A stretch of 64,000 nt of DNA from a virus. The position numbers were made by a program, and so were the translations under genes. Shown here one piece after another: positions 1-36,395 of the stretch. The notes under the pieces were generated by a model. That model did no database searches, was not told the DNA's origin, and worked only from the letters and a program-made list of their open reading frames with translations. The stretch's first letter is position 1. Every line of letters begins with the position of its first letter. The stretch lies in the IMG/VR virus record IMGVR_UViG_3300034378_000186, positions 1 to 64,000 of that record. The stretch is one strand, 5' to 3'.

Positions 1-788
1 AAGACATATAAATTTCGTCTTTACCCAACAAAAGAGCAAGAAGTGCTTTTAAATAAGCATTTTGGACATTCTCGTTGGGTGTATAATCATTTCTTAAATG
101 AACGCAAAGAACAATATCAGGCGGATAAAAAATCTGACAATTATTACAAACAAGCTGCCACACTGACAAAACTTAAAAAAGAAGAGGATACGAAATGGTT
201 AAAAGAAGTTAATTCTCAAACGTTGCAATTTGCTTTACGTTCTTTAGATACAGCTTTTCTAAACTTTTTTAGAGGTAATGCACAATTCCCAAAGTTTAAA
301 TCTCGGAAACATAAAAATACTTTTACTGTTCCCCAATTTGGAACTTTAGTTGACAATAAAATATCAATACCTAAATTCAAAGAAGGTATTAAAGTGAAAT
401 TGCATAGAGAGGTTAAGGGTAAAATTGGTAAAATGAGTATAATCAAAACACCTACTGGAAAATATTTTGTTTCAATTTTAACCGAAGAGCAATATCAGCT
501 TAAAGAAAAGACTGGTGCTGTTTGTGGTGTGGATTTAGGATTGAAAGACTTTGCCATTACTTCTGATGGGATTAAATTCAAAAATAACCGATATACTAAG
601 AAATATGAAAGAGATTTAGCGAAAGCACAAAAACATCTTTCTCGTAAACAAAAAGGTGGCAGTTCGTTTGAAAGACAAAAACGAAAAGTTACCAACATAC
701 ACGAGAAAATATCTAACACAAGACAAGATGTATTGCATAAGGTATCACATCAGCTTGTATCTGACTATGACATAATTGCCTTAGAAGA
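1..788 (+). pseudogene. tnpB: TnpB 5' part (start upstream of window), broken just after RuvC-II Glu
   Basis: KTYKFRLYP, WLKEVNSQTLQ, FPKFKS, GVDLGLKDFAITSDG, ends DIIALE then unrelated sequence. Confidence 0.92.
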
Positions 789-815
789 AAAAGAATTTTC
801 TATATATTTATAGGT

Positions 816-1865
816 ATGAATATAGTTGATAAAAATATAGGCGGTTTGGTTGGCGGATTACTCATTGACAGCAGAGTTGATAATTATTCAATGGATAACC
901 GAAATTATAATTGTACTTGTGAGTGTGGAAACAAGATTGTAAAGTCATTTAACGCTTTAAATTTAGCTATTCGTAGGAAGAGTTATTCTACTTGTGGCTG
1001 TAAGAAGAGTGGTAAAAATATGGTTGATAAATACATTAGCAAACATATTTCCAATGTTAAAATATTAGGAAGAGTTGAAAACTATTCAATTGAAAATCAA
1101 AAGTATGATTGTTTGTGTGATTGTGGTAATAGAACAACAAAAGATTATGCTGTACTCTTTCATTCATTAAAATACGGACATAAAGTAAGTTGTGGTTGTA
1201 TTGTAACTGGTACTTGGAATAAGGGCAACTTTAATGATACATATGCAAAATCTAAAATAGGTGAAAAACACAATGAGTTATCTATAATTGGGATAGAGAA
1301 AAATAACCCACACGGGTATAAAATGATTTGCGATTGCGAGTGTGGAAATATGACGAAACAAATATATGCCGACCTTAAAAGAGGTAAAGTTAAGAGTTGT
1401 GGTTGTTATGGCAAAGAACAACAAAGTAAGTCGGGTTCTAAGTATGGGTTAAATAATGGCACTATAAATTGCTCAAAAAGAAAATGGGGTGTTGAAAAAG
1501 ATGGTAAGTTTATTAGAATGCGTTCTGGTTTTGAAGTTATGTACGCTATGATTCTTGAAAAGGAAAACATAAAATGGGAGTATGAACCCAAAAGATTTAA
1601 ACTTTCAGATGGTTTGAGATATACACCAGACTTTTATTTACCACATCAAGACCTTTGGATTGATGTTAAAGGTCATATAACAGAAAAACATAAAAAGAAA
1701 CATAGGTTATTTAGAGAACTTGGACAGAATCTTAATTTAGTTATGATTGATGAGCTACAAGAAAGATTAGGTATGAGTTACTATATGTTTAAAAAACAAT
1801 GGGATATTAAAGCCGAGTCAGACAATGTGGAAACACCTCGTATGGTAGCTGCGAGTACAGAATAG
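816..1865 (+). CDS. PD-(D/E)XK endonuclease with three CxCxCG...CGC zinc-binding repeats, inserted in tnpB
   Basis: Repeats CTCECGN/CLCDCGN/CDCECGN; C-terminal RSGFE..WEYEP..YTPDFYLP..WIDVKG. Confidence 0.8.
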   Translation: MNIVDKNIGGLVGGLLIDSRVDNYSMDNRNYNCTCECGNKIVKSFNALNLAIRRKSYSTCGCKKSGKNMVDKYISKHISNVKILGRVENYSIENQKYDCLCDCGNRTTKDYAVLFHSLKYGHKVSCGCIVTGTWNKGNFNDTYAKSKIGEKHNELSIIGIEKNNPHGYKMICDCECGNMTKQIYADLKRGKVKSCGCYGKEQQSKSGSKYGLNNGTINCSKRKWGVEKDGKFIRMRSGFEVMYAMILEKENIKWEYEPKRFKLSDGLRYTPDFYLPHQDLWIDVKGHITEKHKKKHRLFRELGQNLNLVMIDELQERLGMSYYMFKKQWDIKAESDNVETPRMVAASTE

Positions 1866-1937
1866 GCGTTCTAATCATTTTAAATGATACTACACAAACA
1901 ACAATTAAAAACAGGCTTTAAAATCTCATTAAATAAA

Positions 1938-2231
1938 AATGTAAAAGGGATGATGAGCAATAGAAAACTATCAAAGCATATTGCAGATGCAAGTTGGGGT
2001 ACATTTGTGAGGTTTTTAGAGTACAAAGCAGATTGGAATGACAAAAGAGTGGTTAAAATAAACCGCTTTTACCCCAGTTCAAAAACGTGTAACGTCTGTG
2101 GGTGGATAAATCAAGACTTAAATCTTTCAGTTCGTGAATGGACTTGCAAAAATGGACATCACTTAGATAGGGATGAAAATGCTGCAAAAAACATTCTAAA
2201 TGAAGGATTAAAGATAATATCGGCTGGAACT
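1938..2231 (+). pseudogene. tnpB: TnpB 3' part (zinc ribbon, RuvC-III)
   Basis: NVKGMM..IADASW..LEYKA..PSSKTCNVCG..WTC..DRDENAAKNI..ISAGT. Confidence 0.92.
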
Positions 2232-2265
2232 TTACAAACTAAATAATATTCCGTATATTTGAACT

Positions 2266-2850
2266 ATGAATACGAATACACAGAAATATAAAGTTTGTTA
2301 TAAATGTAGAAAGAAATTACCGCTTACAAGTGAGTATTTTTCAAAGCAGAAAAAATCCTCTGATGGTTTTGATGGTAGATGCAAGTCTTGTGTAAACTTA
2401 ATATCTAAGAAGTATCGTAAAGAAAAAGGTGAACAATATAGGATTGATAACATTACTAAGGCTAAGGAGCAACAACAAAAAAGAATAGCAAAAAGACAAT
2501 GTAGGCACTGCTCAACTAATAGACTATCAAATAGCGATACACTATGTGAAAAACATTGGTTTCAATACGCTTCTAAACGTCATCTTGGGACAATGAAAAG
2601 AGGGGGTGAACTGAAAGCATTATTGGAAAGGCAGAATTATAAATGTGCTTATACAGGATTGATTTTAACACCTGCATTAGATGCAGGCGTTGACCATATT
2701 ATTGCTCTTTCAAATGATGCGGGGCAACATAATAAAATAGAAAATCTTCAATGGGTACACTCTGAAATAAACAGAATGAAGAATAACCATACAGAAGAAG
2801 ATTTTTTGAAATACATTAAACTAATCTATGAAAATAGATTGAGTGGGTAG
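2266..2850 (+). CDS. HNH endonuclease with N-terminal CxxC zinc motifs
   Basis: CYKC..CKSC; QNYKCAYTG..VDHIIA..NLQWVHSEINRMKNN. Confidence 0.85.
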   Translation: MNTNTQKYKVCYKCRKKLPLTSEYFSKQKKSSDGFDGRCKSCVNLISKKYRKEKGEQYRIDNITKAKEQQQKRIAKRQCRHCSTNRLSNSDTLCEKHWFQYASKRHLGTMKRGGELKALLERQNYKCAYTGLILTPALDAGVDHIIALSNDAGQHNKIENLQWVHSEINRMKNNHTEEDFLKYIKLIYENRLSG

Positions 2851-2975
2851 GGACTATCCACTATACACGGGTGGAGCTATAAATAAGACTTCTTTCGAGA
2901 AGCATAAAGCTGTGAAACCCGAAGCCCGTTTGTCTTTAGTAAATGGGTAGTTCACCGAACTGAGATGAATTTAAT
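2842..2975 (+). ncRNA. omegaRNA (TnpB guide RNA) scaffold plus ~20-nt flank-derived guide
   Basis: 5' hairpin AGTGGGTAG-GGA-CTATCCACT, CGGGT/ACCCG pairing, TTCT-TTCG-AGAA hairpin, RE hairpin, TCAC at 2952-2955. Confidence 0.75.
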
Positions 2976-3057
2976 TAGTAGCATAAATAATAATTAACCA
3001 GCCAACACCGCAATGGATGCTACATGTTGTTAGGTGCTGGCGCAATACTTTAATAAA

Positions 3058-3342
3058 ATGGACGAAATGTCAAAAGCTTGTACAAAAGAAAGCCGCCCTG
3101 AGTTTGCGGAATTGTTAGAAGCATTCAAAGAGCAATTAAACTACATGGATGAAAACTCAAGTATTATTAACGAAAAGGTGAACACGATTAAAGATTTACA
3201 TTTTCCTGAAAAAGAACCAAGCCTGGAAGAAATTCAATCGAGTGGCGTATTAGGTGAACTGTGGGGATGCGTGGCAAAAATGCGCGAGTACAACAACACG
3301 CTTAATGAAAGCAAAAAAAGTTTGGTTAGGTTCATTGGTTAA
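3058..3342 (+). CDS. hypothetical helical protein flanked by inverted repeats
   Basis: ORF; ATG at 3058 preferred over GTG 3034. Confidence 0.7.
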   Translation: MDEMSKACTKESRPEFAELLEAFKEQLNYMDENSSIINEKVNTIKDLHFPEKEPSLEEIQSSGVLGELWGCVAKMREYNNTLNESKKSLVRFIG

Positions 3343-3460
3343 ATGGATAGCGTGCAGGCGTGGGTCGGCTGCGCTTGCACCTAATGAATGGTAATGATAA
3401 GAAACAGGAGAAGATCTTGTCAAAAATTATCACTTTAAAAAACACTAAAAGGAAATAATT

Positions 3461-3790
3461 ATGGATGAAAATAAAAAAATAAATCAGGTAAAAGCAGGAG
3501 ATGTAAATCTTGATGTTCAATTGGATGGTGATAAATTAGTTATCAAACCATTAGATCTTGTTTCAGGATTAAAAATGATTGGTATTATATTTAAAGAAGA
3601 AGAGGTAGAAGGAAAAGATGAATATTGGAGTGATGCCTATCAGGCTACATTTCAATTTAAGGATGGTGTATTCTCTGTAAAACCAACCAGGCCAATTAAA
3701 CTGCTTCAGGTAAGTGTTCATGTTCAAACTGATATTGTTATTAGTCCTGATGAAGAAGATAAGCCTTATAAAGAAGATTTAAATAAGTAA
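3461..3790 (+). CDS. hypothetical protein
   Basis: ORF with A-rich leader. Confidence 0.75.
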   Translation: MDENKKINQVKAGDVNLDVQLDGDKLVIKPLDLVSGLKMIGIIFKEEEVEGKDEYWSDAYQATFQFKDGVFSVKPTRPIKLLQVSVHVQTDIVISPDEEDKPYKEDLNK

Positions 3791-3854
3791 CGTAAAGATA
3801 ATAGATTAGTAGAGTTAAGAAATGAGGGGTTTAATGTATGGGGATGGATGCTAT

Positions 3855-3898
3855 ATATAAATGTTATATGTCAGATTGAAAAATTTTTATTATATTTA
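3855..3898 (+). promoter_or_regulatory. palindrome ATATAA-N3-TTATAT upstream of TATATTTA box
   Basis: ATATAAATGTTATAT 3855-3869; TATATTTA 3891-3898. Confidence 0.5.
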
Positions 3899-3924
3899 TT
3901 GAAAATGTTTATTAAAATGCTATT

Positions 3925-5001
3925 ATGGGTAAGAAAAATTCGGTGGTACAGATTCCAGATTTTGTAAAAGAAAAAGGAGAATCTGCACAAAAGTCTTATA
4001 TTCAATGGGTTAAGATTACGGATGAAATTCATAATCATCCTAAAAGGTATATGAGGGTGCCTTCAAAAGAAGATCCAGAGGAGTTTATTGAGGTAGATTG
4101 CATACAAGCAATCAATCATGTTCGTAAAAAGGTTATACATTGTACGAAAGATATCAGGGATTTAGTTGAGATTAATTGGAAAGAAATTCAAAAGCTTAAA
4201 ATCAAAAAAGGACAGATTAGAAGGGAATGGGATAACATTGTTTATTCTAAACCTGATGAGGGAGGGATATTTGATGTAAAGAGAACTGACATAATAGAAT
4301 TGTTTGGGCAGTATAAAACTGTGAATGAGGTTAAAAAGATAATTACAGAAGAATGGGGTTATCAGATTTCAACACACAAGGTTAAATCATTTTATCTGGC
4401 AAATAAGGAAAGGGTTACAGAACTAAGAAAGGAATGGGCTGATGATTATACAGATTTTGATGTGGCTCATAAAAGAGGTAGATTGGAGAAATTAGCTTAT
4501 CTGGCAACAACTCAGATGGATAAATACAGGGAGAAGCATTCAATACCTCACTCTAGGGAAGTTAGAGCTATATTGGAACAGATCAGACATGAAATAGAAG
4601 GGGAAGAAATCCGGGTAAATATTAAAGGTGAAATTGATATTCAACAAACCATATTAGTTAATCAATCTATTAATCAGGTCACCAGGAAAGTGAATTTGAA
4701 TTCATTTATAGTAGGATTGGTAGCTGCTCAAAGGGGATTGGATGTGGGTAAGTTTATGAATATATTACAGAATTCTTATTATGCTAAATATACTGGATTT
4801 GGAAGTAAGAAGGCTGTAAAAGGAGAAGAAATAAATTATCCAAGTAAAATTATATATAATTGGAATGAAATTGATGATATAAATAGTGAAGGGGTGGAAG
4901 ATATTTCACATACAGAAGAGGTTACATTTGAACCTGAAAATGATCTCAGGGCAAAATTAATAAATAGGGTTAAAGAGAAAAGTAAAAACGTAAAAACTTA
5001 A
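3925..5001 (+). CDS. hypothetical protein, possibly terminase small subunit-like (DUF2280-like)
   Basis: HTH-like region then VAHKRGRLEKL..ILEQIRHEIEG; weak resemblance only. Confidence 0.4.
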   Translation: MGKKNSVVQIPDFVKEKGESAQKSYIQWVKITDEIHNHPKRYMRVPSKEDPEEFIEVDCIQAINHVRKKVIHCTKDIRDLVEINWKEIQKLKIKKGQIRREWDNIVYSKPDEGGIFDVKRTDIIELFGQYKTVNEVKKIITEEWGYQISTHKVKSFYLANKERVTELRKEWADDYTDFDVAHKRGRLEKLAYLATTQMDKYREKHSIPHSREVRAILEQIRHEIEGEEIRVNIKGEIDIQQTILVNQSINQVTRKVNLNSFIVGLVAAQRGLDVGKFMNILQNSYYAKYTGFGSKKAVKGEEINYPSKIIYNWNEIDDINSEGVEDISHTEEVTFEPENDLRAKLINRVKEKSKNVKT

Positions 5002-5003
5002 TC

Positions 5004-5219
5004 ATGGACGAAAAACATAAGGAAATTATTCTTAAATTTATAGATCAATTAATTTTAGTATCTGAATTCAATGAAATAAGGATGAAGAAAGTTGAGGCAG
5101 TAGAAAGACAGGATTATGCATTAGCCTCAGAATTAAGAAAAAAGGAATTAGAGATTTCTAATAAAATACCAAATATTCAAGATCTAAAAAACATTAGGGA
5201 AGAAATTAAAAACATTTAA
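5004..5219 (+). CDS. small protein with UVR-like coiled coil
   Basis: KKVEAVERQDYALASELRKKE resembles UvrB/UvrC (UVR) motif. Confidence 0.55.
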   Translation: MDEKHKEIILKFIDQLILVSEFNEIRMKKVEAVERQDYALASELRKKELEISNKIPNIQDLKNIREEIKNI

Positions 5220-5220
5220 A

Positions 5221-5760
5221 ATGGATGCAAAAGAATTTTTAAAAAGTGAAGGATTAATCGCAAAAGGTAAATCCGATTTTATAATTAAATATCCGGATGG
5301 GAAAGAAGTTTCATTGGTGAATCTGATGAATATGTTTTTGAATGCTTCCCTTCCAAGTGTGGAAAAGATATTTAAACAATATCCTCCTATTATAGAAGTA
5401 GAAGTAACTCAAGATGCTGCCATGTATTTGGATGAATTTAGGGATGAATTGATGAGATATATGAAGCAAAAGGAATTATATAAAGATTGTCCAGTATTTG
5501 TATTATTGGGTGAACAATCTGAAATTAAGCTTCATTCAGTATTAAAAGAAGGGTTTAAAGAATTTCAGATTATCAAAAAGGATCTTGAAAAATTAATGGA
5601 AAAAGTAAAACAAAAAGAAGATGAAAAATCAAAAAAATCAGGAGAATTGGGTAAAGGAAACAAATCCAAGGGAGGAAGTAAAAATAGCTCAAAAGGTTCT
5701 GAAAAAGATAAAGGAAAACAGAAAAGGGAAAAAGTTCAAGATGATAAAAGTGATGGATAA
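5221..5760 (+). CDS. hypothetical protein, Lys-rich tail
   Basis: ORF in operon. Confidence 0.7.
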   Translation: MDAKEFLKSEGLIAKGKSDFIIKYPDGKEVSLVNLMNMFLNASLPSVEKIFKQYPPIIEVEVTQDAAMYLDEFRDELMRYMKQKELYKDCPVFVLLGEQSEIKLHSVLKEGFKEFQIIKKDLEKLMEKVKQKEDEKSKKSGELGKGNKSKGGSKNSSKGSEKDKGKQKREKVQDDKSDG

Positions 5761-5826
5761 GCCATTAACATATAAGGAAGTTGAGGTTTTGAATTAGTTT
5801 GTTGTTTCCATACTAATTTAAGGGTT

Positions 5827-5861
5827 GAGGGGTTCTAAGCGGTTGGAATCCCTCTTTTTTT
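5827..5861 (+). terminator. intrinsic terminator
   Basis: GAGGGGTTCTAA-GCGG-TTGGAATCCCTC followed by T-run. Confidence 0.8.
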
Positions 5862-5914
5862 AGCTTTAGTAGTAGTAGAAAGGTAAAAAAAATGATTTTT
5901 TTGTAAAAAAAACA

Positions 5915-5967
5915 ACATATAATTTTTATATATAAAGAAAAATTAGTATATTTGTAATGGATATTAA
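5915..5967 (+). promoter_or_regulatory. conserved promoter: palindrome plus Bacteroidota -7 box
   Basis: ATATAATTTTTATAT at 5917, TATATTTG at 5947; near-identical block at 15809. Confidence 0.75.
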
Positions 5968-5992
5968 TATTAACAATTTAAAACAATACAAA

Positions 5993-6589
5993 ATGGAAAC
6001 TTTAGTTGGTTTATGGTGTAATTTATTCAGAGCTATTGAAATAGCTAAAACAGGTGAATATTCGATTTCAATTTATTTTGACCAAGAATATAAAAAGGGG
6101 TTTGACGATTATAGGTCAATCAAGGCATTCTGTAAGGGTTGGTTTGATAAATTTGTTTCAGATGGTGATATAAAGATAGAGATTGTGAAGCCACAGTCTT
6201 ATGAACAAAAAAGTAAATATGAAACTTTAGAAGATATTTCACTAAGAGTAGAAAAATCTTTACAATTCCAAAAACCAGAATTAAACCTATGTAATGCTTC
6301 TGAATCTTTATTAGAAACAACTACTCAAAGATTAGATTTATCACTTTCACAAGTTGAAAAGATAAAACAAATAGCTGCTACCATTGCACAGATGGATTTT
6401 TCTGAAACTATACAAGCACAACACATAGCTGAATCAATTCAGTATTCATTTATGTATAACGATACGGGTTATAATGCAGAAGAGGAGTCTATAATGTTTG
6501 GGGACATGATTCAGATAAAATTAGGTAAAATAGACAGCGAAACGATTAAATCGGCTATTGATTATCTCAACGGGGTGCTGCTGTCTTAA
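5993..6589 (+). CDS. ComM/YifB (Mg-chelatase-related)-like protein lacking the ATPase core
   Basis: FRAIEIAKTG; DIKIEIVKP; RLDLS..KIKQIAATIA..SETIQAQHIAESIQY; no Walker A/B. Confidence 0.65.
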   Translation: METLVGLWCNLFRAIEIAKTGEYSISIYFDQEYKKGFDDYRSIKAFCKGWFDKFVSDGDIKIEIVKPQSYEQKSKYETLEDISLRVEKSLQFQKPELNLCNASESLLETTTQRLDLSLSQVEKIKQIAATIAQMDFSETIQAQHIAESIQYSFMYNDTGYNAEEESIMFGDMIQIKLGKIDSETIKSAIDYLNGVLLS

Positions 6590-6648
6590 ATGCCCCTTAA
6601 CTCCGATATAAACGCCATTTAAAATTTTATGTTTAAAGGTAAATAATC

Positions 6649-6948
6649 ATGAAAAAATCATTTATAATATTAATAGGTCTGCTCTTGGGGTTGGGATTAT
6701 CAGCTCAGGAACCACCTCAGATCATATCTGAGACTGACACAACACTTACCTATATAAATCAGGATGGTGATACATTAACTGTTCAAACTTGGAGTCAAAA
6801 GGATAATCCAGGAATTGATTATAAGGAGTTCTATTCAGGTACTCCTGTTGATACAGTTATATTATATCATAATATTACCCCTGTTAAATATATGGAAAGT
6901 TATAGAGAAAAAGAACAGGAGGAAGATCCTGGAAATTCCGATTATTAG
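6649..6948 (+). CDS. secreted hypothetical protein
   Basis: Signal peptide MKKSFIILIGLLLGLGLSA-Q. Confidence 0.7.
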   Translation: MKKSFIILIGLLLGLGLSAQEPPQIISETDTTLTYINQDGDTLTVQTWSQKDNPGIDYKEFYSGTPVDTVILYHNITPVKYMESYREKEQEEDPGNSDY

Positions 6949-6969
6949 AAACCAATAAAACATACAATA

Positions 6970-7341
6970 ATGGAAACAACAGAAATTATTCAAAGGAAAG
7001 AAAATTTTAAACAGGTTTGTGTATGGCCTGGAACTACAATGGGAGATTCAAAACCTGAAGAATTTGAAGAATTTTTTATGGAAAATTTTGAAACCAGAAC
7101 TCAATTTTTGGAAGAGGTTACTACACTTCCTGATAGAAATGAGATGGGGGATATAATCCCTGAAACAGGAGGAAGGATTGATATTTTATTTGCAGTCCAT
7201 GATGAAGACATTTCTAAATTTTCAGTCAGTAGGCTTTCAATGGGTATTAGATGGATTGAAGATGCTGTTTCAAACATTAATAATCCAAATGGGATTATAT
7301 ATGATGAAAGGATTCTTCAATATAAAGAATGGGAGGCTTAA
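6970..7341 (+). CDS. hypothetical phage protein
   Basis: ORF in operon. Confidence 0.75.
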   Translation: METTEIIQRKENFKQVCVWPGTTMGDSKPEEFEEFFMENFETRTQFLEEVTTLPDRNEMGDIIPETGGRIDILFAVHDEDISKFSVSRLSMGIRWIEDAVSNINNPNGIIYDERILQYKEWEA

Positions 7342-7343
7342 AA

Positions 7344-7535
7344 ATGAATATATATGATTACATAAAAGCCATGGAGGTAATTCTCCAGGATAACAGGCTG
7401 ACAGATGCTCAAAAGGTTGATAATGTGAAGGCCTTAATCAAAAGGGTACCTGCAGAAAATCATGAAAGAAAATGTGAAGAGGAAATCCCTACCCAAACAA
7501 AGGAAGGGTTTGATCTCAGGTTTTTAAAGAATTAA
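7344..7535 (+). CDS. hypothetical protein
   Basis: ORF in operon. Confidence 0.6.
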   Translation: MNIYDYIKAMEVILQDNRLTDAQKVDNVKALIKRVPAENHERKCEEEIPTQTKEGFDLRFLKN

Positions 7536-7548
7536 ATTTTTACTATTA

Positions 7549-8006: not shown

Positions 8007-8009
8007 TAT

Positions 8010-16562: not shown

Positions 16563-16775
16563 AAATTGAGTGTAAAACCAAATTATTTTTAGTGGTTTGG
16601 ATGTAAGCGACAAAAGTAGTATATTTGTATTGTCAGTATAAGACATTAAAACCTCGTAAGGGACTTGCGAGTATACGTATGGAGCGACAGTAAGACTTCT
16701 AACTCTTTGGAGCAGTAAGCAAGTTGCTGTGAAGTACGAAGCACATTCATCACGAAGTGTGGATGTGTAGTTCAC
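16563..16775 (+). mobile_element. 213-bp protein-free IS200/IS605 derivative: LE, promoter, omegaRNA, RE
   Basis: TTTAT|AAATTGAGTGTAAAACC..GGATGTAAGCGAC; TATATTTG 16620; ends TAGTTCAC. Confidence 0.85.
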
Positions 16776-27370: not shown

Positions 27371-27375
27371 AAAAA

Positions 27376-30300
27376 ATGAAAAGAATATTATTTGGTATAT
27401 TGTTGATTCTATTAGGGGTGTTAGTTAATGCCCAAGATCAACCAGTTTTGGCTTTACCAAACAGAGGTGCCCCTTCTAATTCTGATGTGTATTATTTAAG
27501 TAGTGCAGCAGGGACAGATTATAAGATTCAACATTCTGATATCTGGAATGATATTTATCAAAATTATGTTTTGAGATTAACAGATACAGGGGTAATTGAT
27601 ACTTCCTATTATATAATGATAAACAACGGAACTAAAACTTATAAGGTGAAATATAAGGTATTGGTTTCAGATCTTGATACAGTATTGTATGCTTATTTTG
27701 CTGGATATGCTTATTTTGCTGGATATGCTTATAATGTAGATACTGCTCAGGATAATATGTTTGTAAAAGATACAATGTTTATAAATTATGGTAGGTTACT
27801 TGATATTAAAGATTCAATAGATGTTGGATATTATATTGAAAGTGATTTTGTATTAAGTGATAACTTTTTCACAAATGGGGATTTTAAATTTAATGATTCT
27901 TCTTGGTGGAATGGAACAGGGAATCAGGTGTTTAAGATATATGATGAAAGGGCAAATTATTTTCAGGATGGTTCTCAAGGTTTTCAAACAAATCAATTTT
28001 CATTAGTAGATATTGATATAACAAAAGAACATTATTTTAGTTTTGAAATGGGTGGGGTTTCAAATGATCCTTTGACTTTACAATTTTTGGATAAAGATAA
28101 CAATGTTTTATTTACTAAAGTTATTCCTACTGCTTATACAGGGATTTTTGATACAATTTTGACTGTGACTGCAGATATTGAAGTAATGAATATTCAAGGG
28201 TTTTCAAGTCCTGGAGCAAGTTTTTGGTTTGATAATTTTTATTTAAGTGAAAGAAGTTATAAACCAATTCTGAAATATGATACAACGGTAGTTTTTGAAA
28301 ATATTCAATTTCAAAATTTACGATTGGATGAATTATTATCAAGTAGGGTTGGATATTTAGGTGATGCAATAGTAAGGGATACGATATTTTCAAAATTAGA
28401 TATTGGAGGATTTAAACCTATTATTCCTTTAAATGAATCAAATTTTGATTCAGTGGGATTGTGGGATGTGGCAGGAGGTATTATAAGTGGGGGTAAATTT
28501 CAGAATGTTGCAAATCCTCTTACTATTTATGCAAATTATCCTGTTGATTTACAAGCAGGAGATTCAGTATATGTTGAAATTTATTTTGATGTAAAAGATG
28601 GATTTGGAGGGGGAAGTATACAAGTAAGTTTTAATACAGATTCTTTAGATACTATTTTTATTCCAGATAATTGGCATACAAATTATAAATGGGTTACAAG
28701 ATTTCATACTTTAAATTCTCCTTCTACTCAATTTTCTTTTTCAGGAGTAAGGGAAGAATCATCTATTATGAATTTAGGTATTGATAGAATTATAGTTGGT
28801 AAATATGAACAGGGTGCTGTTAGAGATTTGGCTTTTGATAAACCAATTGGATTAAAAAATGTTATTGTTCATAGTGATCAAATTTCAAGTATTGAGGCGG
28901 AAAAGGTTGATGGTAAAGTAGATAGTTCTTATTATTCAGATATTGCAGGAGAATTATTAAATGGCCTTAAAGATGATACAGTTTTTACAAATTATATTTT
29001 CCCTTATCAATCTGGAACTTCTTTAGAAATTGGTCATGATACTACTGAAACTGAAGTTTTATTTTCTGATAAATTATTGTTAAAAGGAGATAGAACTTTA
29101 GGAGATACAACAATTCAATTTAAAGTTACTGAAATTGAAACTGATTATACTGGACTAGAGATGTATGGTTGGATCTATGAGAATTGGTCAGGGAATGATG
29201 ATCTTCATAAGTTTTTTGAGTGGGATGGTTATTATCATACTCTGATGATTGGTCACGAGGGGAATGATAGACAGTACTTAGATGTATCGGAGTTTGACTT
29301 ATTGATGGGTGGACAAGATAACTCAATAGATCTTGGTGGATATAGTATGAGCTTAGGTGGTAAATCTAATAATATAACTACTGGATATTATAGAATCTCT
29401 ATAGGTGGTAATAGTAATTCACTTTCAGGATCAACTACTTTTGATGCAGGGGCGATTATAATCGGAGGTTATGATAATGACTTGAATGGGAATTCTGAAT
29501 CTCCAATAATCATAGGTGGTAATACCAATACTTTAGGGAATGGTAATGATTACTCCATGATTTTGAATGGAAAAGATAATACAATCTCTGGAGATTTTAA
29601 TACTTATAATACTATCATATCAGGAGAAGGTAATATACTTAGTGGAACTTATAACATAGTAGGAGGTTATTATAATTCAATATCTGGTAATTATAATATT
29701 TCTACGGGTGGTGGTAATTCACTTGGTAGTAATTGCGACAATTCAATAGCAGTAGGGGAATATGTCAATATTGATAATTCGTATATTGGTAGTGCAGGAT
29801 TTGGAGAAGAGATATTTATAGACGGAGAAGGTAACCTTGTTTCAGGTTACTATAATAGTATTACCGCTGATTATTCAGCCATAGCAGGTGGTAGTGAATC
29901 GAGTATTAGTAGTTTTGGGTCTAATTGTTTTATTGGTGGAGGTTATGATGCCAGTATTCAAGGAGGGTCTAATTGTTTTATTGGTGGAGGTTATGATGCC
30001 AGTATTCAAGGAGGTTCTGGTAATTTTATAATAGGAGGAGAGGAGTTGCAAGTTCAAAATTCTAATAGTAACTATTCAGGAGTGATAGGAGGTTATCAAA
30101 ATGTTTTGGATGATTGTGAGAATTCAATAATACTTGGAGGACAGGGGAATAATATAGGTAATGGTACTTATGAAGCTTTTTTGGGAGGTGGTTATAATAA
30201 TGATATTGGGGGTAGTTCAGGATCTAATAGATCTGTAATACTTGGGGGAGATGAAAATCAATTAAATGGCGGGGGAAAATCTGCTATGATTGCTACCGAA

Positions 30301-31170
30301 TCAAGTATTTTCTCTAAAGGTAATTATTCTTTAATGGGGGCTACTTCTAATTCTGAAATGAGTTTTAATAATGGCGGCGGCGGTTGTATTATATTAGGAG
30401 GAGATTATAATTATATGGGGGCGTCAGGAACTTATGATATTTCAGGAGGGGTAATGTTAGGAGGAGATTCTAATTATTATGAGAACGGAAATTATGGGGC
30501 AATAATTGGAGGATTAAATCATGTTATTGATTCAGGGCAAAGTATAATTTTATTAGGGGGTACAGATTTAATAGGTCATTCTAATAATACAACAATTACT
30601 GGAAAATATAATAATCAAGGCCAATATTTAAGTGATAGTGTTTTGTTTGTGGTTGGTAATGGAACAGCTTTTGATATGAGATCAGATGTTTTTTGGGTAA
30701 ATGAAAATGGTCATGGTTATATTAATGGTAAATTGAATTTTGGAGCTAAAGATTCTGCTAATATATATTTTCGTGAGGTGGGAGATGGAACAGATACTTT
30801 ATATGTAAATTGTTATTCAGGGGTTGTAAAAATTGGGAATAATTCTTTGATTGTTGATCAATCAGGGAATGTTAATATATCTGGTAATTTAACTGTAAAT
30901 GGTACTACAATAGGTGTTGATACAAGTTCTTTTTCAGAAACGTTACCACAAATTAACGGATTAAGGTATAAACAGAAATCTTCAGGTATTACTACAACTT
31001 TATGGGCAAGTCCTCTTGAGGGTGATTTGATAGTAATTTTTAACAGGGGTGGAGGAAGTAATACTATTAACGGTAATGGAAATAATATAGAAGGCAGTGC
31101 TACTACCTCTTTAAATAATGGGGAAACTCTTCATTTAAGATTTATTGATGGTGAATGGTTAATCGAATAA
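27376..31170 (+). CDS. large fibre/adhesin-like protein with signal peptide and Gly-Asn beta-roll repeats
   Basis: MKRILFGILLILLGVLVNA-Q; many IGGxxN repeats; LFVVGNGT..RSDVF. Confidence 0.7.
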   Translation: MKRILFGILLILLGVLVNAQDQPVLALPNRGAPSNSDVYYLSSAAGTDYKIQHSDIWNDIYQNYVLRLTDTGVIDTSYYIMINNGTKTYKVKYKVLVSDLDTVLYAYFAGYAYFAGYAYNVDTAQDNMFVKDTMFINYGRLLDIKDSIDVGYYIESDFVLSDNFFTNGDFKFNDSSWWNGTGNQVFKIYDERANYFQDGSQGFQTNQFSLVDIDITKEHYFSFEMGGVSNDPLTLQFLDKDNNVLFTKVIPTAYTGIFDTILTVTADIEVMNIQGFSSPGASFWFDNFYLSERSYKPILKYDTTVVFENIQFQNLRLDELLSSRVGYLGDAIVRDTIFSKLDIGGFKPIIPLNESNFDSVGLWDVAGGIISGGKFQNVANPLTIYANYPVDLQAGDSVYVEIYFDVKDGFGGGSIQVSFNTDSLDTIFIPDNWHTNYKWVTRFHTLNSPSTQFSFSGVREESSIMNLGIDRIIVGKYEQGAVRDLAFDKPIGLKNVIVHSDQISSIEAEKVDGKVDSSYYSDIAGELLNGLKDDTVFTNYIFPYQSGTSLEIGHDTTETEVLFSDKLLLKGDRTLGDTTIQFKVTEIETDYTGLEMYGWIYENWSGNDDLHKFFEWDGYYHTLMIGHEGNDRQYLDVSEFDLLMGGQDNSIDLGGYSMSLGGKSNNITTGYYRISIGGNSNSLSGSTTFDAGAIIIGGYDNDLNGNSESPIIIGGNTNTLGNGNDYSMILNGKDNTISGDFNTYNTIISGEGNILSGTYNIVGGYYNSISGNYNISTGGGNSLGSNCDNSIAVGEYVNIDNSYIGSAGFGEEIFIDGEGNLVSGYYNSITADYSAIAGGSESSISSFGSNCFIGGGYDASIQGGSNCFIGGGYDASIQGGSGNFIIGGEELQVQNSNSNYSGVIGGYQNVLDDCENSIILGGQGNNIGNGTYEAFLGGGYNNDIGGSSGSNRSVILGGDENQLNGGGKSAMIATESSIFSKGNYSLMGATSNSEMSFNNGGGGCIILGGDYNYMGASGTYDISGGVMLGGDSNYYENGNYGAIIGGLNHVIDSGQSIILLGGTDLIGHSNNTTITGKYNNQGQYLSDSVLFVVGNGTAFDMRSDVFWVNENGHGYINGKLNFGAKDSANIYFREVGDGTDTLYVNCYSGVVKIGNNSLIVDQSGNVNISGNLTVNGTTIGVDTSSFSETLPQINGLRYKQKSSGITTTLWASPLEGDLIVIFNRGGGSNTINGNGNNIEGSATTSLNNGETLHLRFIDGEWLIE
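27688..27732 (+). repeat. 18-bp in-frame tandem repeat x2.5
   Basis: TATGCTTATTTTGCTGGA (YAYFAG). Confidence 0.9.
29917..30012 (+). repeat. 48-bp perfect in-frame tandem repeat x2
   Basis: GSNCFIGGGYDASIQG encoded twice identically. Confidence 0.9.
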
Positions 31171-31180
31171 ATTAGAAATT

Positions 31181-31564
31181 ATGTCTTTAATAAGTAGATC
31201 AATATCAGTTGGAGCAAGAGGTTGTAATTTTAAAACTTTAAAAGAAGTTTGTGATTCCATTACAGATAGTGGACCAACTAAGCCTTGTGAAATTATTGGA
31301 TATACAGAAGTATTTACTGAAGATCCTTTTACTATTCCTGCTCATACTGTTTTGAATTTAAGGAATTTTATTTTAACTCCAAATAACAATTCTGCAGATT
31401 TTATAACTATGAGTGATGCCTCTGTTATAAGATTTGCAAAAAGAATTGATGCTCCTACAACATCTGGAGCTGCTGTTCTTTTGAATGGATTTATAACAGG
31501 AAATGTTGCTATAATTAATCTTAAAGCAAGATATGCAAAATGGTGTGATGGAGGTTATATTTAA
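31181..31564 (+). CDS. short tailspike/pectin-lyase N-terminal-like protein, possibly truncated
   Basis: VGARGCNFKTLKEVCDSITDS resembles beta-helix cap. Confidence 0.4.
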   Translation: MSLISRSISVGARGCNFKTLKEVCDSITDSGPTKPCEIIGYTEVFTEDPFTIPAHTVLNLRNFILTPNNNSADFITMSDASVIRFAKRIDAPTTSGAAVLLNGFITGNVAIINLKARYAKWCDGGYI

Positions 31565-31585
31565 TAACTAAAAAATAAAAATATT

Positions 31586-31996
31586 ATGAAAAAATTTGTT
31601 ATATTGTTTATGTTTTCAATTATTTGTATGATTGGAAAAGCTCAAACTCCAATGATAATTGATGTTTCAAATTTATCTGGGGCTGATACAACAAAGAAGA
31701 TTACTTTTTCAACAAGCGGTCCTTTTACTATTCAGGTAGAAAGTCAGGGATTAACAGGAACATTAAATGGGGTTTTTACTATTTATCAAAGAGTGAAAGG
31801 GTCAAGAAGGTGGAATCCTATTAATGTTCCAGGAAATCCTAAAACAATAGATGCTGCTGATGATAGTTGGCAGTTTGAAGATAAAGTTGGAAATTCTACT
31901 TCTGAATATTTAATTAGATATGAAAAGAATGAAACAACTGGAGGGTATTTGATTGTAAATATTCAAGAATTATCAGTACGAACCTCAAATAGATAA
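31586..31996 (+). CDS. secreted beta-rich protein
   Basis: Signal peptide ..MIGKA-Q. Confidence 0.65.
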   Translation: MKKFVILFMFSIICMIGKAQTPMIIDVSNLSGADTTKKITFSTSGPFTIQVESQGLTGTLNGVFTIYQRVKGSRRWNPINVPGNPKTIDAADDSWQFEDKVGNSTSEYLIRYEKNETTGGYLIVNIQELSVRTSNR

Positions 31997-31999
31997 ATT

Positions 32000-33466
32000 A
32001 TGAAAAGAATATTGTTTTTGTTGATATTATATCTACCATTATTTTTATATGGTCAAGATTATAGCGATAATAAGGTTATTGATATTAATCCTGGAGGTGG
32101 AGGAGGTCCTGACAGCACGTGGGTAACCATAACTACTGACACATTAAAAGTTAATGAACACCTGGAAGTCAGTGGAACTGCCACAATAGCAGAAATGGAA
32201 GTGACCGGCGCATCGTCGGTCGACGCCAACTTCTCGATTACCGGGGAGAACTATATGAGCCTCGACTATTGGTTAGAGAGCGCATTGCCGAGTTCCTCCA
32301 GTGGACCGAAATCCTTTATCGCGTCCAAGACAGACGGGGGTGGCAACCCTTATCTGTGGCACGTACAAGACCTTGGCACGTATAAGATACTGGACGAGTA
32401 CTACTTAGAGGTGGAAGGTGCCGGTCTGGTGAAGTACTTCACACCAACAGGCACGAACGACCTGGCGGAGTTCGAGCTGTACTGCACGTACCAGATGGCC
32501 AAGGGACAGCCTGCGTACATATACGACCCTAGCGACAACGGACTGGACATACAGTACCCGTCGGCGACTGGCAAAAGTTACAACAGACTGCCGTGGATCG
32601 GCGTGTCAACGGACGGGGACGACGCTCCACGAATTAGGATAGATAGCGGAACGCTGTTCAGCCAGATGGGAATAAAGAACTTCAGCATAGACGTGTTCGG
32701 TGACATAACGATACACTCGTACGGCGCGGAGATGGACTTCGCCAACGTCTACATCAAGAAGAACGCCAAGATAACGATAAGTGGCTCGGGCAAGTTCAAG
32801 TTCTACCGGCTCAAGACCTATTCCTCGACCGGGATAAGCAGGATGAACATAAAAAACATGGCTAACATGTACATAACTTACTTCTTGACCGTCGGCCCCA
32901 GCGGCATAGACTTGCAGATAGAGGACGGCGGGGTGCTCGACATAGGCAAGGGCGACGACAAAGTGGAGATTCACGTGGGATACAACTTAGGAACGCCACA
33001 GAACGACGCGAGGCTCAGCGTCGCGGATTACAACAACATAGACTCGGTGGTCGTCCACGGGGACAGGTGCATAGTGGAATTAACGAACTGCGACGCACTG
33101 GACATCAGACCCACAGCGGACGCAACGACTGTGATAGGAAACGGCAACGTCGTGAACGACGGAGGAACTAACAGCGTAATCCTGGAGGACATCGCTGATG
33201 GCAAGATGCCGGCCGACACGTCTTCGCTGGGCGAGACCATACCCCGCATGAACGAGCTGGTGTACAAGCAGAAGGGCAACGGTATAACCACCACGCTCTG
33301 GGCGAGTCCCGAGGAGGGTGACAACCTTGTGATAATAAACAGGGGCGGTGGCAGCAACACGATTTCGGGAAACGGGAACAACATCGAGGGGTCGGCGACC
33401 ACGACGATTAACGACGACGAGAGCTTCAGCCTCGTGTACATTAACGGCGAGTGGCTGATATATTAA
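32000..33466 (+). CDS. fibre-like protein with signal peptide, high-GC body; C-terminus paralogous to 27376..31170
   Basis: ..LFLYG-Q; DTSS..YKQK..GITTTLWASP.EGD..NRGGGSNTI.GNGNNIEGSATT..GEWLI in both. Confidence 0.75.
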   Translation: MKRILFLLILYLPLFLYGQDYSDNKVIDINPGGGGGPDSTWVTITTDTLKVNEHLEVSGTATIAEMEVTGASSVDANFSITGENYMSLDYWLESALPSSSSGPKSFIASKTDGGGNPYLWHVQDLGTYKILDEYYLEVEGAGLVKYFTPTGTNDLAEFELYCTYQMAKGQPAYIYDPSDNGLDIQYPSATGKSYNRLPWIGVSTDGDDAPRIRIDSGTLFSQMGIKNFSIDVFGDITIHSYGAEMDFANVYIKKNAKITISGSGKFKFYRLKTYSSTGISRMNIKNMANMYITYFLTVGPSGIDLQIEDGGVLDIGKGDDKVEIHVGYNLGTPQNDARLSVADYNNIDSVVVHGDRCIVELTNCDALDIRPTADATTVIGNGNVVNDGGTNSVILEDIADGKMPADTSSLGETIPRMNELVYKQKGNGITTTLWASPEEGDNLVIINRGGGSNTISGNGNNIEGSATTTINDDESFSLVYINGEWLIY

Positions 33467-33514
33467 AAAACTTTATTAAAAATTAAATAATTACTAATTT
33501 AAACATAACAGAAA

Positions 33515-34081
33515 ATGAAATCAATTAAATTATTTATTATCGCATTAATTAGTTTGGTAACTTTTACAGTCGAAGCCCAAATGAGCGATAGTGCAATGGC
33601 TGTTTATGATTCTGCAGTTTGTCAGGATGCAATTAGTGATATTGGTAATCCTACATGTGCTAAATATGTAGATTATTTATATTATAATTGGAAAGGAGAT
33701 GTAAATGATTTTGATTCTCTTGAACAAATTAATTTTTGTACAGTAACAGGTACTTTAGTAACTGTTTATGGTGCTGATACTGTTGCATTAATTATTACAT
33801 GTCAAATAACTCAGGGTACTCCTGCAAGATTATTTAATATGAGTTTTAGTAAAAATAAAAGGAATGTTATGAATTTTGCAGAATTATTTACTTATTTTAT
33901 TGATTATTCACAAACAGGTTTAGATAAGGATTCTTTAATAGGAGAAAATGTTTATGGGTATGAGGTAGAGAATGGTAGAAAAAGAACAGGTACATTAGTA
34001 TATATAAATACTGAGGAAAAATATGGAGTAATTGAAAGAGGGAATAGAACCTACAAATGCAATTTATTTACTATCCACTAA
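33515..34081 (+). CDS. secreted hypothetical protein
   Basis: Signal peptide ..TVEA-Q. Confidence 0.65.
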   Translation: MKSIKLFIIALISLVTFTVEAQMSDSAMAVYDSAVCQDAISDIGNPTCAKYVDYLYYNWKGDVNDFDSLEQINFCTVTGTLVTVYGADTVALIITCQITQGTPARLFNMSFSKNKRNVMNFAELFTYFIDYSQTGLDKDSLIGENVYGYEVENGRKRTGTLVYINTEEKYGVIERGNRTYKCNLFTIH

Positions 34082-34287
34082 TGAGGTGGATAGTAATAAT
34101 ATTGGTTCTTTGTTTCTGTTCTTGTGTTAATCAATATCATGTTTTTCATGTGAATAGAAAATTCAGTGGTGAGGTTGAATATATTTTTATGAAAGGTAGG
34201 AAATCGATCACTGTAAAAACTGATACAATGCCTTATAAGAAAAATGAATTGATAACTTTAAGGCAAATCAAAAAGTTGGAAAAATGA
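34081..34287 (+). CDS. small lipoprotein
   Basis: MRWIVIILVLCFCSC. Confidence 0.55.
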   Translation: MRWIVIILVLCFCSCVNQYHVFHVNRKFSGEVEYIFMKGRKSITVKTDTMPYKKNELITLRQIKKLEK

Positions 34288-34487
34288 AACCTCCTAAAAA
34301 AGGAAAAATAGTAACAGGGGTAACGTTATTTAATATTTTACTTATTGCTGCTGTAACGGTGATAGGAGGTTTATTTATATGACGGAGCGTAAAACCAATT
34401 CATCGCTTTAGCGTGGATTGGATGTAAGCGACTTACTCTTCACTTACATTTTGTAATTTTGTAAAAGTTTAGACTATTTAATAATAT

Positions 34488-36395
34488 ATGCTTAAAGGAT
34501 TAAAATATCGCATTTACCCAACCAACTCACAAAAAGAGTTAATAGCCAAACATATTGGTAGTAGTCGTTTTGTGTATAACCTTGCATTAGAAACAAAAAA
34601 TACAGCATATTTAGGTTCTAAACATAACTTTTCTCCTTTTGATTTAATTAAGCAACTATCTGAACTTAAAAAAGAATATCCTTGGCTTAAAGAGGTTAAT
34701 AGCCAATCTTTACAGCAAGCTATCCAAAATATGGATATTGCTTTTAAGAAATTCTTTAAAGGGGCTGGTTTTCCTAAATTCAAGTCAAAGCATAGAGGAA
34801 AACAATCTTTTTCTATTCCACAAAATGTAATAGTAGAAAATGAAAAGTTAATTATTCCTAAATTCAAGGAAGGAATCGAAATTGTTTTGCACAGACCTAT
34901 TGAAGGAACAATCAAAAGTGCAACTATTAGTATTACTTCAACAGGGAAATACTTTGTTTCAATATTAGTTGAAACCAGTAAAGAGAAACCAAGTAAAGCA
35001 CCTATTAAAGAAAAAACAACTATTGGTATTAAGTTAGGCGTATTCCCAAATATGTTTTCTACAAATAATTTTTCCGTTAGCCCATTGGCTAATAGACGAT
35101 GCGGAACTTCCAGTTCCTCTACTGGCAGCAGTGCAACTCTCCCAAACAGCAATGATTTCTCCTGTTTCCTTGCTTCTTTGAATGACTTTCTTCTTGGAAG
35201 CCGCCCAAGCAGCTTGATGCAGTTTGGATATATGCTCGGCACTACGTTTTGCCCCCTTATTGGCTTTAGATATTTTTCTTCTTGTTTCAGCAGAGTGCGT
35301 TTTTCCAAAAAAGCCATTAAATTCTCCAACTCTGGTTTTAGCGCGGTTAGAAATAGCAGCACATTCGGATTGAGTTCTTTTTCTCCCCAAAGTGCTTCTA
35401 TGGGGTACGGTGCAAATATTATAGCCGAATTTCTTTTCGTTACTCCTAAAGAAGGAAATCCAAAAGCATTCTCTATCTTGAAGGCTTGCGTAATCCTCGA
35501 CAACTTCGATGATTTGGAAATCAAAAGCATCCCATCCGTACTTAGCAATAGCCTTGTAAAATGGAAAGTTGCTTTGCAAGTTCCTTTTTCTTCTGTGTTC
35601 AGCAAATCTAAGTTTGATATTGACGGATTGCCCAATGTAGCATTTACCGTTGATTGTGTTTCTGAAGATGTAAACTCCAGATACAGATGGGATGTCTTTG
35701 AACCTTGTTTGCATATTGCAAAGATACAAAAAGAAAACGATTTAAAACCTAATTGTTCAAAAAAAGACTTAGGAATAAAATCGTTTTTAGTTACTTCTGA
35801 TGGAGAAGAAATTGATAATCCCAAATACTTACGAAAAGCACAGAGTAGATTAAAATATGTACAACGTAAATATTCAAATAACAAAGGCAAGCGCACTAAG
35901 AAAAAACTTGCTAAGCTACACGAAAAAGTAGCTAACCAAAGAAAAGATTTTCTACATAAAACCTCAACTAAACTGATTCGTGAGAACCAAACGATAGCCA
36001 TTGAGGATTTAGCGGTTGCTAACATGGTCAAGAACCATAATCTTGCACAGGCAATTAGTGATGTTAGTTGGTCAACCTTTGTTTCAATGTTGGAATACAA
36101 AGCTGATTGGTATGGTAAAAATATCTTACAAATAGGACGTTTTGCACCATCATCAAAGACTTGTTCTTGCTGTGGGTATATCAATAAAGAACTAACACTA
36201 AAAGACCGTGAATGGACTTGTCCTAAGTGTAATTCTGTACTTGACCGTGATGTGAATGCTGCTGTTAACATTAAATCATTTGCATTAAAAAATATCTTAT
36301 CTGGAACGGATAGGAAAACTCGGAACGAACTGCCTCGGTTACGAGGAGTGTTGACTTCCGAAGCCCAACCCATCGGCTCTGCCGTGGGTGGGTAG
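34488..36395 (+). CDS. tnpB: TnpB with a 245-codon in-frame insertion directly before RuvC-I Asp (probably inactive)
   Basis: KTTIGI [735 nt] DLGIKSFLVTSDG; IAIEDL; DRDVNAA. Confidence 0.85.
   Translation: MLKGLKYRIYPTNSQKELIAKHIGSSRFVYNLALETKNTAYLGSKHNFSPFDLIKQLSELKKEYPWLKEVNSQSLQQAIQNMDIAFKKFFKGAGFPKFKSKHRGKQSFSIPQNVIVENEKLIIPKFKEGIEIVLHRPIEGTIKSATISITSTGKYFVSILVETSKEKPSKAPIKEKTTIGIKLGVFPNMFSTNNFSVSPLANRRCGTSSSSTGSSATLPNSNDFSCFLASLNDFLLGSRPSSLMQFGYMLGTTFCPLIGFRYFSSCFSRVRFSKKAIKFSNSGFSAVRNSSTFGLSSFSPQSASMGYGANIIAEFLFVTPKEGNPKAFSILKACVILDNFDDLEIKSIPSVLSNSLVKWKVALQVPFSSVFSKSKFDIDGLPNVAFTVDCVSEDVNSRYRWDVFEPCLHIAKIQKENDLKPNCSKKDLGIKSFLVTSDGEEIDNPKYLRKAQSRLKYVQRKYSNNKGKRTKKKLAKLHEKVANQRKDFLHKTSTKLIRENQTIAIEDLAVANMVKNHNLAQAISDVSWSTFVSMLEYKADWYGKNILQIGRFAPSSKTCSCCGYINKELTLKDREWTCPKCNSVLDRDVNAAVNIKSFALKNILSGTDRKTRNELPRLRGVLTSEAQPIGSAVGG
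35034..35714 (-). CDS. GIY-YIG homing-type endonuclease with NUMOD3/NUMOD1-like DNA-binding motifs
   Basis: SGVYIF.N.INGKCYIGQS.N...RF..H; GYN; FFGKTHSAETRRKIS. Confidence 0.92.
   Translation of the reverse strand: MQTRFKDIPSVSGVYIFRNTINGKCYIGQSVNIKLRFAEHRRKRNLQSNFPFYKAIAKYGWDAFDFQIIEVVEDYASLQDRECFWISFFRSNEKKFGYNICTVPHRSTLGRKRTQSECAAISNRAKTRVGEFNGFFGKTHSAETRRKISKANKGAKRSAEHISKLHQAAWAASKKKVIQRSKETGEIIAVWESCTAASRGTGSSASSISQWANGKIICRKHIWEYA
35719..35726 (-). promoter_or_regulatory. Bacteroidota -7 box for GIY-YIG gene
   Basis: TATCTTTG 4 nt before ATG. Confidence 0.7.

Follow-up and report, generated by a model that had tools for sequence, protein, structure and literature searches.

Two phage copies of tnpB have been invaded by three unrelated nuclease genes, each with a promoter box of its own; this was confirmed here for the first 64 kb (the window) of an 80.8-kb virus contig from IMG/VR, IMGVR_UViG_3300034378_000186, whose start is also the start of the window. 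Cas12 descends from TnpB, which serves its own transposon as an RNA-guided homing nuclease. Three tnpB genes lie within the window. The first, tnpB-1 (1 to ~2955, plus strand), lacks its 5' part, which is cut by the contig start, and carries a PD-(D/E)XK cassette (insert 1, 789..1937, plus strand) followed by an HNH cassette (insert 2, 2232..2863, plus strand). The second, tnpB-2 (34488-36395, plus strand), is interrupted by a GIY-YIG cassette that reads in the opposite direction (insert 3, 35031..35765, minus strand). The third, tnpB-3 (58098-59186, minus strand), is intact and belongs to a different family. We favour, with a probability of roughly three in four, the reading that the inserts are free-standing, intron-less homing genes with their own promoter boxes, which would have invaded two phage-borne, tnpB-only elements of the IS200/IS605 type (IS, insertion sequence). 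The evidence for this reading comes from sequence comparison and from structure prediction.

The boundaries of the inserts were set by blastn against uninterrupted relatives. Two scans of viral contigs yielded ~120 loci with relatives of tnpB-1 or tnpB-2, the best of which reach at most 98% protein identity over single pieces. In ~110 of these viral contigs, with both tnpB families represented, the pieces found apart in the window directly adjoin one another, so that close relatives provide the exact empty sites. Insert 1 (1149 nt) replaces the CCTT that stands between GAAGA and AATGTAAAAGG, insert 2 (632 nt) replaces GGCGAT, and the two ends of insert 3 (735 nt) share a fuzzy repeat of 8 nt, AAGTTAGG / GACTTAGG. 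That the interrupted genes are indeed tnpB follows from the Pfam domains of their pieces (HTH_OrfB_IS605, OrfB_IS605 and Cas12f1-like_TNB) and from RuvC residues that align with those of ISDra2 TnpB (8BF8); both interrupted copies also contain the RD.NAA motif.

In tnpB-1, the N-terminal piece (1..788, plus strand) comprises the helix-turn-helix region, assigned by Pfam, together with the RuvC-I Asp and the RuvC-II Glu; the frame of this piece runs into a stop codon within insert 1, at 811-813. The middle piece (1938..2231, plus strand) comprises the zinc finger and RuvC-III and ends in ISAGT, and the tail codons (2864..2955, plus strand), which are at the same time the remaining omegaRNA scaffold, reach the right-end motif GTAGTTCAC. 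Compared with one uninterrupted copy, L059, these pieces show 78% (L059:4025-4788), 93% (L059:4793-5086, with a ratio of nonsynonymous to synonymous substitution rates, dN/dS, of 0.015) and 97% (L059:5093-5184) DNA identity, respectively, a mosaic which points to recombination among tnpB copies in the vicinity of the nuclease inserts. In tnpB-2, the left IS end and the N-terminal piece (34370..35030, plus strand; ATG at 34488) end in TTIGI, and the C-terminal piece, with omegaRNA and right end (35766..36400, plus strand), starts at the RuvC-I Asp codon.

Where do the inserts lie with respect to the catalytic residues? An uninterrupted relative aligned to ISDra2 TnpB places the start of insert 1 at 2 nt past the E278 codon (RuvC-II, between LE and D) and insert 3 directly 5' of the D191 codon (RuvC-I, between IGI and D). 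Insert 2 follows ISAGT, where the start of the omegaRNA is encoded, and sits in the loop of the first omegaRNA hairpin. A preliminary description of this DNA had put the PD-(D/E)XK gene right after the RuvC-II Glu, the HNH gene at ISAGT and the start of the omegaRNA, and the antisense GIY-YIG gene exactly before the RuvC-I Asp, and all three placements hold. It had also described each insert as a TAnnTTTR box, 4-5 nt and an ATG, and this layout was recovered at 803, at 2254 and, on the minus strand, at 35726. The box corresponds to the Bacteroidota -7 promoter consensus. The layout is rare in the window: among 63 plus-strand open reading frames (ORFs) of at least 80 aa it precedes two, both of them nuclease genes, and on the minus strand it precedes the GIY-YIG gene and tnpB-3. 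It is also found before the PD-(D/E)XK gene in two other loci (L135, L136). Each of the three genes is, further, intact and encodes a fold of the kind used in homing, a probable one in the case of the HNH gene, as detailed below.

The PD-(D/E)XK gene (ORF 816-1865, box TATATTTA at 803-810) scored just below the Pfam cut-off for Phage_endo_I (28.3 bits, cut-off 29.1), and its profile (A2) matched T7 endonuclease I with E=3e-7. It resembles the known structures of that enzyme (1M0D, 1FZR, 2PFJ) over its C-terminal 100 residues, which align and include the PD...(D/E)xK motif, invariant among the relatives. It differs from T7 endonuclease I in the two or three Cys-rich repeats of its N-terminus (CxCxCGN...SCGC), which presumably bind DNA, and in its genomic behaviour, which is that of a homing gene and not of a junction resolvase. 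A homing enzyme of the PD-(D/E)XK fold is known in I-Ssp6803I. In the window, the gene carries an extra tandem copy of the Cys-rich module (813-1129; 198 nt, 66 aa) and thus encodes 349 aa, compared with ~283 aa in most relatives. Its C-terminal peptide, ...VETPR..ASTE, is unusually conserved.

Does this nuclease recur at the same place elsewhere? Relatives with at least 47% identity and tnpB downstream were found in eight loci (the window, L131/132, L133, L134, L135, L136, L137 and L270), and in 8/8 tnpB resumes at the same codon directly downstream. Two of them (L135, L136) retain the upstream tnpB piece too, and there it ends at the Glu codon. No tnpB is seen beside a ninth relative (L269), which is situated at the edge of its contig; relatives at 40% identity or less are located elsewhere. 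The host genes belong to different tnpB families and at least three separate lineages. In a tree of 104 tnpB C-parts, obtained by a quick tree search, the occupied copies require five label changes, of which at least three are forced by well-supported branches, and the occupied copy of the window is nested among empty copies that are 98% identical. The dN/dS of 0.15-0.44 indicates that the gene is under purifying selection, and the lineage is, judging by these loci, a tnpB specialist. At the same time, the upstream tnpB piece is lost or truncated in L131-134 and L270 (with a tnpA remnant kept in L132 and L134), and the tnpB genes of L135 and L136 have degraded zinc-finger or RuvC-III residues. 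This state of tnpB at most other occupied loci agrees with the PD-(D/E)XK cassette being an insert that is not spliced and breaks its host gene. Two or three small hairpins with compensatory changes cover its last codons, stop and 3' untranslated region (1838-1900; also L131, L135, L136, L137). An in-frame ATG at 1884 reopens the tnpB frame in the window, and in most of the loci such an ATG stands 2-18 codons before the downstream tnpB piece.

The HNH gene (ORF 2266-2850, box TATATTTG at 2254-2261) encodes a protein of 194 aa with zinc-ribbon-like CxxC pairs and a probable HNH core. Its Pfam HNH match is weak (18.1 bits, cut-off 21.4). The AlphaFold model (mean confidence score, pLDDT, 81) has HNH nucleases as its top Foldseek matches, namely 4H9D (probability 0.84), the HNH domain of Cas9 and McrA, at a weak E of ~0.2, and the DH...N...N..H motif is conserved in 16 homologues with 48-88% identity. 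A dN/dS of 0.07-0.11 indicates that this gene, too, is under purifying selection. It recurs in four loci and three kinds of element, i.e. tnpB-1-type, tnpB-2-type and tnpB-less ones: in the window, L124, L125 and L126 (same contig region as L123) the HNH ORF runs straight into the omegaRNA and the right end. In L125, the left end, 11 tnpB codons and ...ISSG precede the HNH gene; in L123, the tnpB N-terminus is fused to half of it; and in two proteins (P0223, P0226) HNH is fused to the tail codons.

The tnpB-less case is instructive, as the window itself contains the unoccupied counterpart. This element (16563..16775, plus strand) consists of a left end, a TATATTTG promoter box, a complete omegaRNA with covarying stems and the right end GTAGTTCAC, and its hairpin 1 is free of the HNH gene that is present elsewhere in the same genome. 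L124 is 89% identical to it up to the hairpin loop, where the HNH gene begins. Because L124 is an occupied element that never had tnpB, the target of the HNH nuclease would be the hairpin DNA, with tnpB not needed. The HNH gene of L124 sits between intact IS ends, in agreement with the earlier proposal that the nucleases ride between the ends of the IS. Both elements resemble tnpB-less IS200/IS605 derivatives (PATE/MITE-like) in keeping the ends and the omegaRNA, and both retain a promoter; L124 differs from such derivatives in that an HNH gene interrupts the loop of its omegaRNA hairpin 1.

What becomes of the guide RNA at an occupied site? In relatives without the HNH gene, the scaffold opens with a stem of 7-8 bp that is closed by a GGRAC loop. 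At the HNH loci, the upstream junction is located within this loop or immediately past it (after GGAACT, GGAA or GGGA), and a complete replacement hairpin, whose stem letters differ from those of the HNH-less relatives, is found at the 3' end of the gene; in the window, the last HNH codons and the stop lie within this hairpin 1 (~2843-2861). No Rfam family matched the omegaRNA. A consensus fold of 11 sequences gave 27 pairs, 12 of them changed on both sides. Hairpin 1 accounts for 8 pairs, 4 of which are changed on both sides, with double-sided changes in 4-5 sequences and one broken cell. As the replacement hairpin is complete and covarying, the guide-RNA scaffold behind the HNH gene is whole, and tnpB-1 loses through this insert only ~33 C-terminal tail codons. 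The earlier suggestion that all three inserts disable TnpB therefore fits the PD-(D/E)XK cassette, whose hosts are mostly truncated or degraded, but not the HNH cassette, which spares the guide RNA and removes only tail codons.

The GIY-YIG gene was assigned by Pfam: the ORF at 35034-35729 on the minus strand (ATG ORF 35714-35034, box TATCTTTG at 35726-35719) scored 41.3 bits (cut-off 22.6) for GIY-YIG and also contains NUMOD3. Insert 3 measures exactly 245 codons and is free of stops in the tnpB frame, which gives a read-through ORF of 635 aa. A functional 635-aa TnpB is not inferred from it; in a comparison with 1.84 billion representative proteins, the best 150 matches all measured 248-442 aa and were without the insert. 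The right junction of insert 3 contains a 24-nt imperfect palindrome (79%; 35734-35757 / 35764-35787), in which the end of the insert repeats, in inverted form, the tnpB codons that come first beyond the junction (DLGIKSF). A TTAGG repeat is found at both ends of insert 3. One close relative was found (P0001, 65% identity), on a contig of 974 nt, and 58 further relatives at 46% identity or less, metagenome scan included, were none of them inside tnpB. In L090 (4260-5201, minus strand) and L104, a different GIY-YIG and NUMOD gene is fused in frame to the zinc-finger/RuvC-III end of tnpB as a 313-aa ORF, and the adjoining tnpB has an internal deletion.

Based on these observations, we propose that each nuclease would be expressed from its own TAnnTTTR box and would cut an uninterrupted copy of tnpB or of the omegaRNA in a co-resident genome, be it a co-infecting phage, a prophage or the host chromosome; repair of the break with the occupied copy as template would then copy the nuclease gene in. 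The PD-(D/E)XK cassette splits tnpB 2 nt past the RuvC-II Glu codon. The HNH cassette would target the DNA of the first omegaRNA hairpin, tnpB present or not, and it brings along a re-coded hairpin that overlaps its own stop. The codon choice of the GIY-YIG gene keeps the plus-strand tnpB frame open, so that ribosomes may pass. Because two of the lineages recur at the same tnpB or guide-RNA spot in other phages, the nucleases appear as parasites specialised on a parasite. The idea of homing nucleases on tnpB, as put forward in the preliminary description, is thus borne out in part: the recurrence of the PD-(D/E)XK and HNH genes, the empty sites and the purifying selection speak for it, but the specificity of the GIY-YIG gene is unproven. 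Likewise, when inserts were mapped in other tnpB loci, PD-(D/E)XK and HNH genes were found at the same position, but the GIY-YIG gene did not recur.

Several observations weigh against homing. The GIY-YIG insert does not recur and is a singleton at this tnpB site. Candidate targets in the same genome are unoccupied, i.e. the omegaRNA hairpins at 16655 and 36295, the Glu motif of tnpB-2 and the Asp motif of tnpB-1, and the specificity would therefore be narrow or the activity low. The divergence of the nucleases roughly tracks that of the adjacent tnpB piece; therefore, some vertical descent or co-conversion would be mixed in. Short imperfect target repeats at the junctions are not made by classical homing. 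Finally, the information content of 24-nt windows at the three sites ranks at the 34th, 15th and 48th percentile among 63 unique tnpB genes, and we therefore rejected insertion at peaks of DNA conservation. The insertion positions, which had been called conserved, are so at the level of catalytic motifs, where they lie at the 5' edge of conserved blocks (site 2 being family-specific), but not at the DNA level. The imperfect target repeats considered for insert 1 match at only ~8/15 nt of its junctions and were too weak to call.

According to an unlikely alternative, the cassettes arrived by illegitimate insertion, long ago or in single events, and are now inherited vertically, with nucleases that are inactive or otherwise employed. 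It applies mainly to the GIY-YIG cassette, whose single occurrence it would explain and whose 24-nt palindrome and TTAGG end repeats resemble break-repair capture; the unoccupied targets and the parallel divergence of nucleases and flanking exons would also be expected. However, the occupied copies are scattered over the tnpB tree, and the exon of the window shares 98% identity with empty copies; moreover, purifying selection acts on the nuclease genes, and the HNH gene occurs in tnpB-1-type, tnpB-2-type and tnpB-less elements alike.

We consider it improbable that the IS or the phage has put the nucleases to its own use, for instance as a module of HNH and omegaRNA that replaces TnpB, or as part of a working split TnpB. 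The constant linkage of the HNH gene to a complete covarying omegaRNA, even in elements without tnpB, would agree with such a recruitment, as would the in-frame ATG ahead of the downstream tnpB piece in most PD-(D/E)XK loci; moreover, genes split by homing endonucleases can remain functional (PMC2988022). However, the 194-aa HNH protein is without any sign of RNA binding, the upstream tnpB piece is often lost, and in L135 and L136 the downstream piece has degraded catalytic or zinc-binding residues.

Could the inserts be self-splicing introns (of group I or a new small ribozyme) or inteins, such that tnpB is restored? Homing endonucleases at catalytic motifs are usually carried by introns or inteins, and the PD-(D/E)XK cassette does have small compensatory hairpins at its 3' end. 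We give this explanation very little weight. Rfam yielded no match on the inserts at gathering thresholds, and no core of a group I or group II intron nor any other ribozyme even at E<=10. The non-coding remainder is ~30-100 nt per insert (27+72 nt in insert 1, ~34+13 nt in insert 2 and ~54 nt outside the GIY-YIG ORF in insert 3), and in L134 there is none on the 3' side, as the nuclease ORF ends inside the junction. Inteins are excluded by stops and frame changes: inserts 1 and 2 end the tnpB frame by stops and have their nuclease ORFs in other frames, and the nuclease of insert 3 is encoded on the opposite strand. Furthermore, tnpB is truncated or degraded in most occupied loci. Terminal inverted repeats were looked for at the inserts and not found; as had been noted before, the inserts carry neither terminal repeats nor intein ends nor an intron core. 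Taken together, the sequences support non-splicing cassettes, each with its own promoter box. Least credible of all is an assembly artefact, i.e. a chimeric contig that joins nuclease genes to tnpB repeats: the contig does start inside tnpB-1, a typical repeat break, but the same architectures occur in independent samples (L131/L132, L135, L136, L124, L125, L126), the junctions are codon-exact, and the GIY-YIG insert counts exactly 245 codons between matching flanks.

Beyond homing as such, we tentatively consider two adaptations by which the inserted genes would spare the level above them. The first is a 'home and rescue' strategy of the HNH gene at the RNA gene: the nuclease would cut the DNA of hairpin 1, its own last codons would supply a covarying hairpin, and the guide RNA would survive, so that a unit of HNH gene and omegaRNA would persist and move inside tnpB-less IS shells. 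The second is that genes inserted in antisense would be transparent to translation. Both together are possible, and clearly less probable than homing itself.

The second adaptation is suggested by codon usage. The GIY-YIG gene is without TTA, CTA and TCA codons (chance ~4e-6 under the codon usage of the phage), because the tnpB frame is its codon-aligned antisense frame. None of 52 homologous GIY-YIG ORFs shows this avoidance, even at 43-60% G+C. The intact tnpB-3 also uses none of these codons among its 24 Leu and 28 Ser codons (P ~3e-12 under phage codon usage) and is fully covered by a 398-codon plus-strand ORF (58104-59300), which extends into the beginning of the phage gene that follows. 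No other real minus-strand genes than these two are present in the 64-kb window. In tnpB-1, the successive plus-strand ORFs are separated by gaps of 2, 18 and 19 nt. We speculate that selection favours translation that is not interrupted on the transcribed strand, whereby polarity would be avoided: the codons of the GIY-YIG gene and of tnpB-3 would never halt plus-strand ribosomes, and the downstream phage genes would be expressed without polar effects.

The tnpB-2 family itself (34514-36400, minus strand, and loci L005-L026) has a long open frame in antisense (sense codon positions 3,1,2). The longest antisense open stretch has a median of 0.89 of the gene length in 19 tnpB-2 relatives, compared with 0.2 in 62 tnpB-1 relatives, and the antisense stops number 2 versus 8.3 expected from synonymous shuffles. 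In the window, the antisense frame of tnpB-2 is open through the GIY-YIG insert, as in 1.2% of the shuffles. The orientation of tnpB-2 relatives with respect to their neighbours (antisense in 9/15; in the tnpB-1 family, 13/54) did not track the number of antisense stops.

The phage that carries these elements has a G+C content of 32% in the window, with nearly all genes on the plus strand. Its large terminase is closest to that of an uncultured faecal phage (50%) and also resembles those of the Bacteroides phages DAC and SJC (38%). A 488-aa gene at 32000-33466 stands out by its G+C content of 45%, and its product is secreted, repeat-rich and fibre-like. Among the tnpB relatives, one (L040:2701-3977, high-G+C prophage) contains, near the RuvC-I region, an IS3-type transposase; this is ordinary nested transposition, with no homing nuclease.

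How do the cassettes compare with known systems? T-even phages contain the free-standing endonucleases Seg and Mob, which perform intron-less homing; the mobE gene of phage Aeh1 splits nrdA, and mobA of T4 splits gene 60/39 (PMC2988022). As in these phages, GIY-YIG and HNH genes without intron or intein are present or absent between close relatives, lie in or beside conserved sequence and can divide the gene they enter, at a region critical for function, into two reading frames. In contrast to the T-even case, the host is here itself selfish, namely the tnpB or omegaRNA of an IS in a phage; one cassette is of the PD-(D/E)XK type and resembles T7 endonuclease I; one overlaps and replaces an RNA hairpin, and one is antisense and in frame; and all three have their own promoter box, compared with none in seven T4 genes. 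A second parallel is given by the IStrons, chimeras of group I introns with tnpB of IS605/IS607 (10.1101/2023.11.20.567912). Here as there, a homing-type element is nested with a transposon of tnpB and omegaRNA, and there is a conflict over the 3' end, in which the omegaRNA is located; in IStrons, however, tnpB lies inside a self-splicing intron, whereas here protein-only nucleases lie inside tnpB, without a ribozyme. Our search of the open-access literature (TnpB reviews and primary papers) found no description of classical homing endonucleases inside tnpB.

In the reading that we favour, tnpB and its guide-RNA gene serve as landing pads for homing nucleases of the classical, protein-only kind, such that three selfish levels, the nuclease gene, the IS and the phage, would be nested in one another. 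This would help to explain why many phage tnpB copies are broken or reduced to shells. The cassettes would represent natural nucleases with long recognition sites in RuvC motifs and in the omegaRNA hairpin and are, thus, candidate anti-TnpB tools. The HNH cassette offers a testable example of an endonuclease that may preserve an RNA gene by a compensated copy instead of an intron, and, judging by the stop-free antisense frames, genes that are inserted against the direction of phage transcription may be subject to a new constraint.

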